Positions 30,340 to 44,544 of a DNA stretch of 64,000 nt are shown in pieces. Position 1 is the stretch's first letter, and each line of letters begins with the position of its first letter. The position numbers and the translations under genes are program-made. Below the pieces are notes generated by a model. That model was not told the DNA's origin. It saw only the letters and a list, made by a program, of their open reading frames with translations, and made no database searches. Source of the DNA: Lytechinus pictus (taxonomy: Eukaryota). Location: contig NC_087262.1 of assembly GCF_037042905.1 (NCBI RefSeq), positions 2,108,001-2,172,000 of the forward strand, written 5' to 3'.

Positions 30340-33300
30340 TCATCCACTAAAGCACACGTTTATTTTATATCCTTCGCACCAAGTGCCTTGCATGCGTTGG
30401 TAATCTGCGGCTGGCACATCGCTGACAACTCTTTTTACGCGTACTCCTATATCCTCTGACGGAGGGCGCTGTGAGATAATGACGCCAAATGTGTAAGGTA
30501 AAACACCGGTGTTGATGTAACATATCGGTCCACTCCAGAGAAGCGTTCAAACAACATCAGTCAGGAATCAAAGCGATATTGGTGTAACACAAATTGGTGT
30601 TGTTTAAATACCAAATTGGTGTTAGCCTAACGCTAAAACGGTGATCATTTCACTTAATTCTGATTTTAAAAAATCTCATTTTGGTTCTTAAAAATGGGCT
30701 AAACATTTGGCTTATAGTGTAAAAATACCATAAGTTTAAAAGCATAATATCTACAGGAACAATTCTAAAACCTTGGAGATGTAAACCAACATTTGAAAAT
30801 ATTCGGGGGTTGGTTTCACTGACTGTTTGTATACAGCGAATCTGTGCACTACAGCACACTAACTCTAGAACACAGCATGACCTACATACAGTGTGTACAA
30901 GGTATACACTGAATGTACAGAGCAGCTAATGATAGTGTGTGTGTAGGAGATACATATAGCAGAAGGCAGTCAACACAGCCAACGGACTTTTTGAATTGAA
31001 GATTTGAAGATAACTGCTTAAACCCGTCTACCAGACGGTTCTCAAAATCAGGCTTATAAATTGCTTCTTGAATATAAATTAGAGTTTTTCATCCTATATT
31101 GTGGTCTGCTTCAGGTTTTTTTTTAGGACAAATACAAGCACTTATGCACATGTTTCATGTCAGTTTGAAAATTTGTTTAATCAGCTGATCAGCTGCTCAC
31201 AAAGTGAAAAGATCCCTTTAAAGACGTGGAAATCAAATGCACCATATCGCATTTGAAAAAAAAAAGAATGGGGGTTGGCAAAAATTCATTGCAAATTTGA
31301 GTTTTATTCCAAAAGGAGCCAAATCCACTGTTTGGTAATTCAAAATTGGTTAATATTACTGCTTTAATTAATCTCAGATGAGAGCACTATCATATATATA
31401 TCACATCAAAACAGCAGTAGATAAGGAATGGTGGTGAATTAAAAAACCTTAATTTACAGAAAAACGTTAAATATGGATTTAGCTCCTCAAATTTGGAATA
31501 AGTTACATGTAATGTATTTAGCGAAACGTCGCAACAGTGAGTTGTATTTCAATTTTTTTAGTCCTTTATTAGGAATTATATATCTTTTTTCCCAAATGTT
31601 GAAATAGTATATTACCTCTCGCTGGTCGATGAAGTTTTGTGGAAGTGAGTGACACATCTTCATCAGCTGACTGTCCCAGTCATCGCCATTCTGATAAAAG
31701 TTATGATTATAACAAATATGATTAACATGGTCTATGCAAATAATATTACAAAATAGGATTTCATTGGCAAATTACTAAAATATTTTGAAAAACATACACA
31801 GGAGTAAGGAACAAATGAAAATCAGTAATAATCAACAACAAAATAAATCAAGACTGAAGAGAAAATGAGAAACTATCTCCCCCACCCCTCTCTCTCTCAT
31901 GAAGAATTCATTAGGTGATGACTTCATAAAACAGGGACTCTCTGTGATTCTTTCTATTGATACAAAAAAGAAGAGGACAGGAAGCTTATTTGGTTTTAAA
32001 AAAAAATGAAAATAGAGGCTTGGGTCAAAGATTTGGTCCAGCAGCGTATGCATTCAGATTAATAAAAAAATGTTCACGTCCAAAATACACCAGTTTCCGA
32101 AAGGACATCACGGCCAAAAATTATCTCTGAAATAGCTTATAACGAATACTGGGAAAGGGTGGTGTCACTTATGTCAGTTCCATTGGACATTGCATTGGCG
32201 CAGTTGCGCATCCAGGAAGATGAATGAGAAGAAATAATTTTTTTTTAGATAAGCTATGCTTTTTAATGACCAAACTTACTATTTTGGCTATCATTATAAA
32301 CAACCTTCCCAGACGACTTATTAGTCCTCGTTAGACTGGTCATATTTGTCACTGCCTAGTGATGTACATGAAACTAAGCCAAATAACGAAAAAAAAAAAC
32401 ATTTAAAACACAACGACAACAACAACATAAAGGGAAAATAAATTTTAATTCAAATTCTTCAGTGTGATTAGGATGGATTGCAAGACATCACTTAAAAATG
32501 ACCTAATATACTCACCACTATTTGGCCCGAAAAGTCGGGCGAATTTTTCAGTCGGCACAGCTCACACATTACCTGTAAACAAAAGGGAATGGTTATGAAA
32601 AAAAGACAGACCTTGAATAAACCTTATGAATTTACTTAATTGTGCCGCCATCTTAGAGGCTGTAGCAATTACCTTGCACAGGCCCGTAAAGGGATTTTTT
32701 AGCGGCGTTCTGAATAATAAAAAGTAGAGAATTTTCTAGTTTATGAACATGCCCGTATCGTACGAAACTATGTGCAGTTCATTTACTTTCAGGGGCGGAT
32801 CCAACTTTCCCTATAGGAGGGAGGCGGAAAACCGTAATGAAGGTTATGAATAAGAAAATGTGCATTCTTACTTTTGAAATGGATGGTTCCTTGGTTGCAA
32901 TTATTGGATCAGGAGGGTTATTGGTTGGTTTGACGGTTGGATTCACCTTCTTCATCTCATCATATTCCTCTCTATAGACCTCTGTATCAATACAACAAGA
33001 TATAGTTAAAGTAACTATATAGAAACCAAGAGATTATAATCATATTCATTATTACAATCATATAGAATCAACTTATACGATCATGAAAGTTCATCTTTGT
33101 TGGTTGAAAATAGCATTAAGTTGAAAATTTTGTCTCAACACAAAGACAAATTCGAAGAATCTCCTCGAAATTTTCGGCTGTTAGAATCAACTTATATGCA
33201 ATCAAAGTTTATGATCATCTTCTCTTCTGTATTAAAAGAAAAGTTCATCCTGATAATAAGTTGATTTTAATAATATCATAAATATAATCTAATGAAAAAG

Positions 33301-42300: not shown

Positions 42301-44544
42301 TTATAAAGGATGTCCATTTTGCCCCAACACTTCGTGTTTAGAGTCCGATTTGCGCGAGGTGTAGAAGGTGGGTTCGTACTAAACCAAATATGGTAAAGCC
42401 GACGACCGAAGGACCCGTAACAATAAAACATTCCTGTACTTGTTTAGGGGTTCATTTCAGGGAATATTTGCCAAGATCGAGTATCGTTTTGTTTCCAATA
42501 CTTGTTAAGGGTAGGGTTTCAAACGCCAATACTTGTTAAGGGGTGCATTTTCACAATATGGAAATTACGTGTTTAGGGTGCTTTTCGAGACCCCATGGTC
42601 GCGCATGGTATCCACTCGTGAATGGAAGTGGCCCCCCCGGGGCTGCATTCTTGCACGATACACATTGATCTTTGGTAGAAACTGTTCAAGTTTATAAGGT
42701 GAATTACAGACAACTTGAAAAGTTTATTTTTGATCTGTGGCAAGGGTTAGACAGGGCGGAAATTCGGACGATGTCCTTTTATCTAGTGAAATATGCGACT
42801 TAATGAGGGGAAATTTCCCAAAGAACGAAAGTAATTGACATGATTAAGGTGAATTAAAGAGTTTATTTGCTTCCATGGTTTTGTTGCAAATGCGTTTCCT
42901 CAGCGTCTCTCATGCAGACTTGTCTAAAAACCTACAAGACGTCACGTCAACCTCTTAAAGGCTTGTCTTCGAACCGAGAAAACGTCTAATCTTATCAATA
43001 TCTGTTATAGACAAACTGAGAAGACGTATTGATGTGTTTTGTCCAGAGTATGTAACTGTTGTCCAGAATATGTAAAATGTCGAATTAACTTCTCCTGGAC
43101 TAGTATACTGTAGAGACCGTGAAGGCAAAGACCCCTAGGCCCGATACCTACATGCGTCCGGTTTTATCTGGGAATCGAACATCGAACCCACTTTCCTCAG
43201 ATTGAAAGACGAGAATCTTGACCACTAGACCAAGACGCCCCAAGTCTTCGACATCCCAATAATTGTTGTTTCTATATTAAAATTGAGAATCTAGTTGTTC
43301 CATTGACGTCACCGAGACTTGTTTAAGACTCCTCAAAATCGTCTCACCAACGTGTCCATCACTTTTCTAGAAACCGATGTTTCTCCCCAATTTAACCGGT
43401 TGGTGTTAAATTTACTGGAAATCAAATTTTCATAAATTTACTGTTGCTCTATCTGACAGGTATCTGTTGAGCCTTCAAGAATAAAATTTGTTTTAAAAGT
43501 ATTAAAACAAAAATTATTAGGTATAAACCCATGGACCAGCAGGCATATAAAAATTACGTGATTTTAGAACCATTTTAAAATCACGTAATTTTTACTTTTT
43601 GGGTTATCCCTAGTCACATTTTCACTGTTCACATACCTGGCCAAGTACTGATTACCATGACCAACGTACGCAGGATTATACTTATCAATAATGGTCCGGT
43701 TTGGGTAATTTTGTCTGGAATAAGATCATGGATACGCAAAATTCTGACAATGTGATATTTAAGTTTTGTTTTGCATATGAAAATATGAAAAGGATATCAA
43801 ATTTTCTAACTCAGTTTTTTTTGTAATTTAAAGTGATATCGTTCGGTCTCTTTGCTTCTTCATATGCCTTGTTACACACCCTTTTGTAGGTTTAACATGC
43901 TAGGTATTACTAATAAAAGATGGGAAATGTCATCTTTCAATCGCTACGCTCTCTCGCATGCAAATGATTGAAGAGGTTTTCTAGTGCAAGGCATGTACAG
44001 AATCTATCATGGTGCATGATTCCAGCCCAAACCTTCATATCCTTATCATTTTGCCACTCTTTATCAGAACGTGTATAAGCAACGAAACAAAATGTCCTCC
44101 ATATCTGTTTAATATGTGACTACCAAAATACTTTCAAAACATACAAACGAGATCAAGAGCTTCGGAAATCGTTTTAATTAAATACAAATGAACTTCATAT
44201 TGATTTCATTCATCATATAACATATAACATTTAATGCAATATACATACTTGATTTGAAACTGACGCTACCCAGATATGCCTCTTTTTTATATATACTTTT
44301 CTTTCATTTCTTTAATTTGTCCCTCTTTTCTCCATTTCTCAATACTCTTACAGCTGCTGTTGTTCGCTCTTGTGCATAAATAAAATTGATTAGATATTTT
44401 CGAATCGCTACATCATGGTCACATAAGCGAAATGTCTGTCATAAACACGTGCAGAAAACAATATGATCTAATAATGAAGCAAATCCTACCTGTTTCGAAA
44501 AAAGCTATCGCAAACAATACGACTATTAAAAACGTTTTATCCAT
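30340..44544 (-). CDS. Secreted saposin-like (SapB) multidomain precursor, ~272 aa after removing a MITE from exon 2; this allele is probably disrupted
   Basis: Phase-compatible GT-AG exons: 44544-44490 (signal peptide MDKTFLIVVLFAIAFFET), 42681-42045 (split by MITE; restored 74 nt VSTKDQCVSCKNAAKALQESGEITR), 41607-41518 (TSCFEVVSREDADICWTLV..), 39440-39362 (TPLEVCEALDLC..), 37359-37210 (GIGRF..GRKKR..), 32981-32872, 32572-32516 (VMCELC..), 31690-31616 (KMCHSLP..), tentative last exon 30468-30340. The first domain has the six-Cys SapB pattern. The 3' exons are less certain. Confidence 0.7.
33753..37204. mobile_element. 3.45-kb foldback element with TAT..ATA termini and 6-bp TSD (IS3EU-like), ~0.9-kb inverted arms
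   Basis: TIR TATGGTGGCCCTGAAGGGACATCGCAAA. TSD CTTACG at 33747-33752 and 37205-37210. 33753-~34654 is the reverse complement of ~36355-37204. Confidence 0.85.
34838..36390. repeat. Diverged ~100-120-bp tandem array with a conserved palindromic core GCGAGCGCGAAGCGCGAGC
   Basis: About 13 cores. The same array type occurs at 47000-47880, 18330-18500 and 13225-13330. Confidence 0.8.
37711..37985 (-). mobile_element. tRNA-derived SINE
   Basis: A box TGGCCCAGTGG and B box GGTTCGAATCC, central ..CAACCCAGGTGAGGTAAATGGGTACC.., L2-type 3' end GCGCAATATAAAT and (TAT)n tail. Confidence 0.8.
39510..41022 (-). mobile_element. 5'-truncated restriction-like-endonuclease non-LTR retrotransposon (R4/Dong-like), in an intron of the saposin-like gene
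   Basis: End of RT (YKYLGI, thumb region), CCHC knuckle CRMC-x7-H-x4-C (CRMCGKETETIMHLVSAC), RHD, then a frameshifted KPDI..IEVSVP REL domain with a premature stop at 39819. TAA-type repeats on both sides. Confidence 0.85.
41023..41226. repeat. (ATT/ATC)n trinucleotide microsatellite
   Basis: Direct inspection; it generates the spurious Ile-rich N-terminus of ORF 39961..41193. Confidence 0.9.
42087..42641. mobile_element. 555-bp non-autonomous DNA transposon (CCCGGG termini, 8-bp TSD) inserted in a coding exon
   Basis: ~45-bp TIR CCCGGGGGGGCCACTT(A/C)CATT(G/C)ACGAGTGGATACCATGCGCGACCA. Perfect TSD GCTGCATT at 42079-42086 and 42642-42649. Confidence 0.93.

Follow-up and report, generated by a model that had tools for sequence, protein, structure and literature searches.

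A predicted secretory precursor with probable saposin domains and a hydrophobic exon cassette in the sea urchin Lytechinus pictus

Exon structure and transcription of the gene

The window analysed here is a 64,000-nucleotide stretch of Lytechinus pictus contig NC_087262.1 (assembly GCF_037042905.1, positions 2,108,001 to 2,172,000), and window coordinates are used unless contig positions are named. It carries on its minus strand a nine-exon gene for a predicted secreted precursor, in which two probable saposin domains flank a hydrophobic segment ending in Gly-Arg-Lys-Lys-Arg. Candidate exons were translated from the minus strand of window 28000-45400, and the Lytechinus variegatus protein XP_041485754.1 (LOC121432009, 250 amino acids) was mapped to the window with tblastn. 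It gives ten collinear matches (E up to 5e-4), and each of the nine exons has a match in it. AG/GT splice sites are present at all exons, 206 of the 250 residues are identical (82%, with an X placed at a break in exon 2), and with that X the frame is open as far as a single terminal stop. The exons, together with two repeat elements that lie in or against them, are as follows.

44490..44544, minus: exon 1, with the start codon, a predicted signal peptide and a phase 1 donor; joined to exon 2 by splicing in the contigs of runs X1 and X5
42642..42681, minus: exon 2, 5' part, Cys1 and Cys2 of saposin 1; ends in the first copy of an 8-bp target duplication (42649-42642)
42087..42641, no strand assigned: 555-bp miniature inverted-repeat transposable element (MITE) inside coding exon 2, with terminal inverted repeats and the 8-bp target duplication
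42045..42086, minus: exon 2, 3' part, second duplication copy (42086-42079) and then coding sequence, phase 0 donor; spliced to exon 3 in X1 and X5
41518..41607, minus: exon 3 (phase 0-0), Cys3 and Cys4 of saposin 1; 93% identity to the L. variegatus protein, with contig depth in X1 and X5
39362..39440, minus: exon 4 (0-1), Cys5-x5-Cys6 of saposin 1 and an acidic/Pro spacer; matches the L. variegatus protein
37210..37359, minus: exon 5, a symmetric cassette of phase 1-1 with the hydrophobic segment at 37354-37256 and G-RKKR at 37255-37241, followed by Asp
33749..37208, no strand assigned: 3.4-kb element of nested inverted repeats, situated at the donor of exon 5
32872..32981, minus: exon 6 (1-0), acidic Pro/Thr linker; matches the L. 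variegatus protein
32516..32572, minus: exon 7 (0-0), Cys1-x2-Cys2 of saposin 2; matches the L. variegatus protein
31616..31690, minus: exon 8 (0-0), Cys3 of saposin 2; the following intron directly precedes Cys4
29540..29629, minus: exon 9, Cys4, Cys5 and Cys6 of saposin 2 and the stop; tblastn E 8e-10 to the L. variegatus protein, single copy

The chain is not a product of chance, because every exon matches the L. variegatus protein and contigs contain exon junctions 1-2 and 2-3. An earlier interpretation made from the letters of the window (the sequence-only reading) had proposed nine exons, most of which stand; the signal-peptide exon, the acidic/Pro spacer and the Pro/Thr linker exon all lie on the minus strand where it had put them. 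It had not noticed that exon 2 is split by a 555-bp element, and its last exon, containing an RVKR site (30340..30468, minus), is rejected as intronic and repeat-derived. The tail of the ortholog aligns locally to 29629-29540 with a score of 87, as against 14 to 30468-30340, most of which resembles dispersed repeats at 87-88% (two of the 40 scored candidates cover it). The RVKR site therefore falls outside the protein, and saposin 2, which had been called partial, has six cysteines once the true exon 9 is used. We also looked for a tenth exon that would give saposin 2 a canonical C-x5-C, and none of four candidates behind acceptors in 31600-1 is convincing. A candidate polyadenylation hexamer lies past exon 9 at 29467. 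Upstream of the start codon on the minus strand are an ATTGG (CCAAT-box-like) at 44775 and a TATAAA-like hexamer at about 44615, a strict TATA pattern being unmatched, and Rfam gave no matches in window 28000-46000.

The gene is transcribed in some samples. Reads from four of the 11 listed public runs were placed on window 41260-44720, which spans exons 1-3 (the library type of X1 and X5 is not on record). In contigs of X1 and X5, which come from two studies, junctions 1-2 and 2-3 are spliced and introns 1 and 2 are removed exactly, with a word depth of 14-23, so that the proposed joining of exons in transcripts is borne out for the part that reads covered. Exon 5 is single copy in the genome, and 0.77 of 13 sampled exon 5 words are present in eight runs of two studies (none on record as RNA).

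The element in exon 2 belongs to a young, high-copy MITE family of about 551-556 bp, with ends CCCGGGGG, an 8-bp target duplication and copies that are 97-98% alike. A genome search gave 2057 candidates; all 40 that were scored are near-full-length with 97-100% identity, the exon 2 copy among them, and the flanking duplication is at least 8 bases long in 12 of 12 loci inspected. The family is also plentiful in RNA reads. Read straight into the element, the frame meets a stop after 30 further codons, and one possible in-frame cryptic donor is found at 42569. The X1 and X5 contigs skip exactly 563 bases with ends GG..GG, which is not an intron but equals the MITE plus its duplication. These contigs therefore carry an uninterrupted, spliced allele, and the exon 2 insertion is most likely polymorphic. 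The 3.4-kb element copied the donor hexamer on insertion, and the exon 5 donor is therefore intact; the end of this element occurs in many copies, with 331 candidates of which 40 were scored, and is matched elsewhere at about 97-99%.

Cysteine frames and the conserved hydrophobic segment

The likely orthologs are L. variegatus LOC121432009 and Strongylocentrotus purpuratus LOC105445090 (XP_030835506.1), which are 33% identical to each other. Both models are automatic and uncharacterised, and the S. purpuratus model lacks its N-terminus; its UniRef name is 'Saposin B-type domain-containing protein'. Literature searches with the two LOC identifiers found nothing. Word-indexed searches returned the L. 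variegatus protein only, and the search with exon 5 found that same single protein.

As the sequence-only reading had recognised, saposin 1 has six cysteines; they lie on exons 2-4 and are spaced 2-17-11-20-5. Saposin 2 also has six, in a shortened and compact frame (2-25-12-14-2) that is not canonical; domain 2 of S. purpuratus is canonical at 2-27-11-24-5, and the genome's own saposin repeats are spaced 2, 27-29, 9-11, 23-24 and 5. The saposin-like order C-x2-C...C...C...C-x5-C is present in domain 1 and in S. purpuratus domain 2. A phmmer search of 1.84 billion representatives gave three matches. Besides the L. variegatus protein itself, these are the S. purpuratus protein, at E 2.5e-9, and, at E 3.2e-5, a protein with three SapB domains, which makes homology to recognised saposins detectable.

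A prosaposin-like gene lies on the same contig (contig positions 21735000-21792000, plus strand), 19.6 Mb from the window gene, with at least about 15 SapB repeats, three of them largely in one long exon. A saposin profile built from ten of its repeats gives domain 2 of S. purpuratus an E of 4e-6, for one sequence. In six places the phase-0 introns of the prosaposin-like gene fall five residues ahead of Cys5, in one place immediately ahead of Cys4, and in six between Cys2 and Cys3; the window gene has phase-0 introns of the same three classes. Those five residues before Cys5 of domain 1 and directly before Cys4 of domain 2 are exact class matches, and both window domains have an intron between Cys2 and Cys3, at a shorter distance than in the multi-saposin gene. 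The rough post-hoc chance of this agreement is 5e-4. We regard the flanking domains as probable divergent saposins.

Other searches add little to this. Foldseek gave none of 72 matches at E up to 0.001, with several saposins among the weak rows; the ESM Atlas gave saposin clusters at 0.75-0.78, under the lead threshold of 0.9; a single-sequence model of the S. purpuratus protein (predicted local distance difference test, pLDDT, 45) has generic helical matches only; and sequence searches of Pfam, NCBIfam and the PDB returned nothing meaningful. A ryanodine-receptor repeat match to the linker (E 4e-4) was dismissed, as it consists of two weak stretches (i-E 1.3 and 2.9).

Between the two domains, the 33-residue segment and its G-RKKR lie in the symmetric phase 1-1 exon 37359-37210, just as originally described. 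The segment has a grand average of hydropathy (GRAVY) of 1.15 and a maximal 19-residue Kyte-Doolittle mean (KD19) of 1.29, with one Arg, one His and no Lys. Together with GRKKR it is identical to L. variegatus at 36 of 38 positions, more than the linker with its 31 of 48 (Fisher's test, p 0.0007) but not significantly more than the two saposins (p 0.20 and 0.48). The motif, whose conservation the sequence-only reading had proposed to check, is kept as G-R-K/R-K-R in all three sequences compared (window, L. variegatus and S. purpuratus). The first 18 residues are amphipathic in both Lytechinus species, with hydrophobic moments (muH) of 0.45 and 0.43 that are reached by 1.7% and 2.6% of 2000 shuffles. 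The aligned S. purpuratus segment is a 30-residue uncharged run directly before G-RRKR-D (29 residues in L. variegatus), with neither GIG nor any Lys, Arg or His, and has a muH18 of 0.15 and a KD19 of 1.97.

RKKR is the sole R-x-K/R-R site in both Lytechinus proteins. No dibasic site was found between Cys6 of saposin 1 and the Gly in either species checked, and positions -1, -3 and -5 before GIG are Glu, Val and Val, so that no X-Ala/X-Pro dipeptide ladder leads to GIG. There is no Cys between residues 87 and 189 of the L. variegatus protein and no N-glycosylation sequon in either Lytechinus protein. The pairing of a predicted signal peptide with a conserved Gly-R-x-K/R-R, as in convertase- and PAM-processed precursors, is present, the signal being absent from the truncated S. 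purpuratus model; it was judged from hydrophobicity alone (exon 1 core, nine-residue Kyte-Doolittle mean 3.6). What these sequences keep across urchins is length, hydrophobicity and the putative cleavage and amidation motif, not the traits of cationic lytic peptides.

A predicted neighbouring gene

A scan of the 100 kb on either side of the window gene found GRKKRD twice more, at 52-72 kb downstream and on that gene's strand. The codon pattern of GRKKRD has 66 matches genome-wide (170 for the reversed control), and three of these fall in this 75-kb stretch, where 0.006 are expected. The two additional motifs belong to a predicted neighbour.

contig 2085020-2065730, minus: predicted neighbour gene of 18 exons with a 778-aa frame, 23-42 kb before the start of the window and 52 kb downstream of the window gene

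All splice sites of the prediction are AG/GT and all phases are compatible. The frame opens with a signal exon and two saposins, each spread over exons of phase 1-0, 0-0 and 0-1. Seven cassettes (1-1) and a linker (1-0) come next, and a third saposin, on 0-0, 0-0 and 0-stop exons, closes the frame. The window gene has this same plan with one saposin and one cassette ahead of the linker. The predicted cassettes are rich in Gly, Met, Gln and Pro and have repeated Phe-Gly-basic ends; four of the six R-x-K/R-R sites follow a Gly, and two are followed by Gln. Two cassettes end in GRKKRD with no hydrophobic run in front and a negative GRAVY. As the motif recurs without the hydrophobic run, it behaves as a processing site.

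An unbiased scan of 264 kb found five candidate 1-1 exons with a furin motif, four of them in the window gene and its neighbour, and none in a 70-kb multi-saposin region. The window cassette shows no similarity to the seven neighbour cassettes beyond the basic motif, and none to the multi-saposin region. No database protein was found for neighbour exon 2. With exon 5 as query no similar second copy of the cassette was found in the genome, and the search for paralogs that the sequence-only reading had suggested, made with the L. variegatus and S. purpuratus proteins and neighbour exon 2, gave no further copy, although these queries are insensitive, that from S. purpuratus missing even the window gene. 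The window gene and its predicted neighbour are likely members of one small family, in which the saposin frame is constant and the peptide cassettes, on phase 1-1 exons, are interchangeable. The original idea that the peptide exon was shuffled as a cassette is thus strengthened by a predicted gene with the same skeleton and seven phase 1-1 cassettes. Beyond the neighbour, two similar exons on the plus strand (contig 2048387 and 2061190), each with C-x2-C and a phase-0 donor 17 residues on, suggest another tandem gene pair.

Interpretation and alternative explanations

The explanation that we favour, with a probability of about 45%, is that the window gene encodes a proprotein that is secreted, probably cleaved by a furin-type convertase and probably amidated, and in which saposin shields a lipid-inserting tail in a manner analogous to proSP-B. 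The predicted signal peptide would send the two-saposin precursor into the secretory pathway, a furin-type convertase would cut after RKKR, and, as in this established route, the basic residues would be trimmed and the Gly amidated; we infer each of these steps from sequence features. The products would be saposin 1 carrying an amidated, lipid-inserting hydrophobic tail and a free saposin 2, not a free 33-mer. More speculatively, the acidic saposins (5 Lys/Arg and 10-11 Asp/Glu) may keep the segment soluble in the secretory pathway, and they could hand it to a membrane or lipid film, as has been proposed for the N-terminal propeptide of SP-B. The sequence-only reading had envisaged a polyprotein, and this is supported as far as the secreted two-saposin precursor is concerned, but not for a free 33-residue membrane-active peptide. 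The protein may act in gut or lipid handling, in coelomic defence, or in a gamete or epithelial surface coat.

The likeness to proSP-B (SFTPB) is one of layout, a signal peptide and then a very hydrophobic central module between two saposin B domains. Unlike that of proSP-B, the central module of the window gene has no Cys and is not a six-Cys saposin, no SapA module is seen, and the site is of furin and amidation type, whereas SP-B is matured by other proteases. ProSP-C and the precursors of BRICHOS antimicrobial peptides also have a folded domain that chaperones a hydrophobic, Val/Ile-rich peptide within one precursor; the chaperoning domain here would be saposin-like and not BRICHOS. ProSP-B's N-terminal propeptide has been suggested to be an intramolecular chaperone, and the saposin in it is active in defence too (PMC4933373).

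Several observations weigh against this explanation. Pfam, including SapB_1 and SapB_2, which had been suggested as a check, matches neither the L. variegatus nor the S. purpuratus protein at E up to 10, and the home-built profile is weak against the Lytechinus domains, where 23 and 4 of 500 Cys-fixed shuffles reach the real score. Structure prediction, another suggested check, gave a weak fold match: for a single-sequence model of domain 1 (pLDDT 48) the best of 48,161 chains is Na-SLP-1, a saposin-like protein of hookworm type (Z 5.2, root-mean-square deviation 3.4, 66 residues aligned), but it is tied with unrelated chains. The KD19 of the S. purpuratus segment is transmembrane-grade. Exons 1-3 have zero coverage in the raw RNA runs X9 and X11 (about 6% of each run read), and the MITE allele in a wild-type assembly suggests that the gene is dispensable in at least one copy. 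The exons of the neighbour were hand-picked, and that gene is a prediction from sequence. In the domain tree two of 14 branches are supported, and a grouping of window and neighbour domains is neither rejected nor shown (approximately unbiased test, p-AU 0.31); the paralogy of the neighbour therefore rests on architecture and position. Finally, Gly followed by basic residues does not guarantee amidation in urchins, as the centrocins of S. droebachiensis are unamidated despite a Gly-Arg (PMC4805251).

A broader proposal, which we put forward tentatively as possible, is that these genes represent an undescribed sea-urchin family of secretory polyproteins built from modules: amidated peptides released by furin and encoded on exchangeable phase 1-1 exons (a lipid-inserting 30-mer here and several peptides in the neighbour) would be packaged in a fixed saposin frame, and the saposins would serve as built-in chaperones or lipid carriers. 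The neighbour's peptides would then be Gly/Met/Gln-rich, pyroglutamyl and Phe-amide, with amphipathic helices. Such a family would be a convergent invertebrate counterpart of proSP-B and proSP-C. Saposins are what the saposin precursors known to us release; in these genes the frame seems to carry cassettes that are not saposins and are bounded by convertase sites, and their number goes from one to seven in the tandem gene. If confirmed, this would allow the building of new secreted peptides by exon shuffling to be tested on an actual case, and it would supply candidates for membrane-active or surface-coat molecules of urchins that Pfam annotation overlooks. No description of a saposin-flanked peptide-cassette architecture was found in the literature searched (supplements and subscription papers lay outside its scope).

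Prosaposin and other multi-saposin precursors share the six-Cys frame. An unlikely alternative is that the gene encodes a divergent saposin precursor that handles lipid in lysosomes or gut; RKKR would then do no more than part the two saposins, and the segment between them would serve for sorting or as a linker. The intron classes held in common with the prosaposin-like gene would suit such a precursor, as would the acidic saposins, which are like lysosomal saposin A in charge (PMC11896702). However, the middle segment is conserved as much as the saposins, the Gly ahead of the basic site is present in each of the three sequences, neither Lytechinus protein has a sequon, and a separate multi-saposin gene is already present on the contig. 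Unlike prosaposin, with four or more tandem SapB repeats, the window gene has two domains, compact in Lytechinus and below Pfam detection, and it has a furin-site cassette exon, of a kind absent from the multi-saposin region.

A single-pass membrane protein, the run being a transmembrane helix and RKKR a cytosolic stop-transfer cluster, is decidedly unlikely. Four basic residues do stand right after the run, and single-pass helices have a 19-residue Kyte-Doolittle mean of about 1.6 or more, which the S. purpuratus segment reaches at 1.97; in Lytechinus, however, it is only 1.26-1.29, a saposin with six conserved cysteines would sit in the cytosol, and GRKKRD also ends neighbour cassettes of negative GRAVY.

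The sequence-only reading had proposed a free, amidated 33-residue peptide akin to magainin or melittin, a lytic immune effector or toxin, and this we consider quite improbable. Precursors of magainin, melittin, centrocins and strongylocins do share with the window gene an acidic pro-region, a helix-forming segment and a Gly-basic C-terminal signal; to our knowledge, none of them carries saposins. Magainin and melittin are strongly cationic, and the N-terminus of promelittin is released by a dipeptidyl peptidase, a route not found in the window protein, where no other N-terminal release site was found either. The amphipathic, GIG-starting character holds for the first 18 residues in Lytechinus (muH18 0.43-0.45), but GIG, charge and amphipathicity are all missing in S. 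purpuratus, and no similar second genomic copy was found with the exon 5 query. Saposins are known in cnidarian venom (PMC11896702), and the family of L. variegatus has venomous pedicellariae (PMC12193733). Basic lytic saposins differ from the acidic ones here (PMC11896702). Isolated urchin antimicrobial peptides are strongly cationic, with 23-29% cationic residues as compared with one Arg in the 33 residues of the segment (PMC4805251). The word 'saposin' was not found in the available portions of a 2025 review of urchin venom (PMC12193733), and no fragment of LOC121432009 was recognised by eye in the L. variegatus peptide tables at hand from PMC4857251.

It seems very improbable that the amidated product acts on a receptor as a neuropeptide-like or pheromone-like ligand, with the saposins as carriers. 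The repeated Phe-Gly-basic ends of the neighbour, with Gln after cleavage sites, are as in peptide-hormone precursors, but the residue before the Gly varies between urchins (Ser or Phe), and the length and strong hydrophobicity of the segment also count against it. That the gene is dead or an artefact, as the MITE in exon 2 of this assembly and the lack of reads in two of four runs might indicate, is scarcely credible and largely refuted by the spliced, uninterrupted contigs from two studies, the open frame of the other eight exons and the orthologous gene models of two further species. In a group of urchins used in the laboratory, the polymorphic MITE allele provides a natural test of loss of function.

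Among the other features of the window, we note a fragment of a non-LTR (long terminal repeat) retrotransposon in intron 3 (39961-41229, minus; zf-RVT, E 7e-4) and a second one at 59949-62594 (plus; RVT_1, E 1e-35). Degenerate tandem arrays at 25410-26730 (periods 60/111/172) and 22201-22709 (periods 11/33/152) are the source of long spurious open reading frames. Upstream of the saposin gene, two tandem long frames on the minus strand (49893-50816 and 55091-56020) match Sulfotransfer_2 (E 1e-40 and 1e-37).

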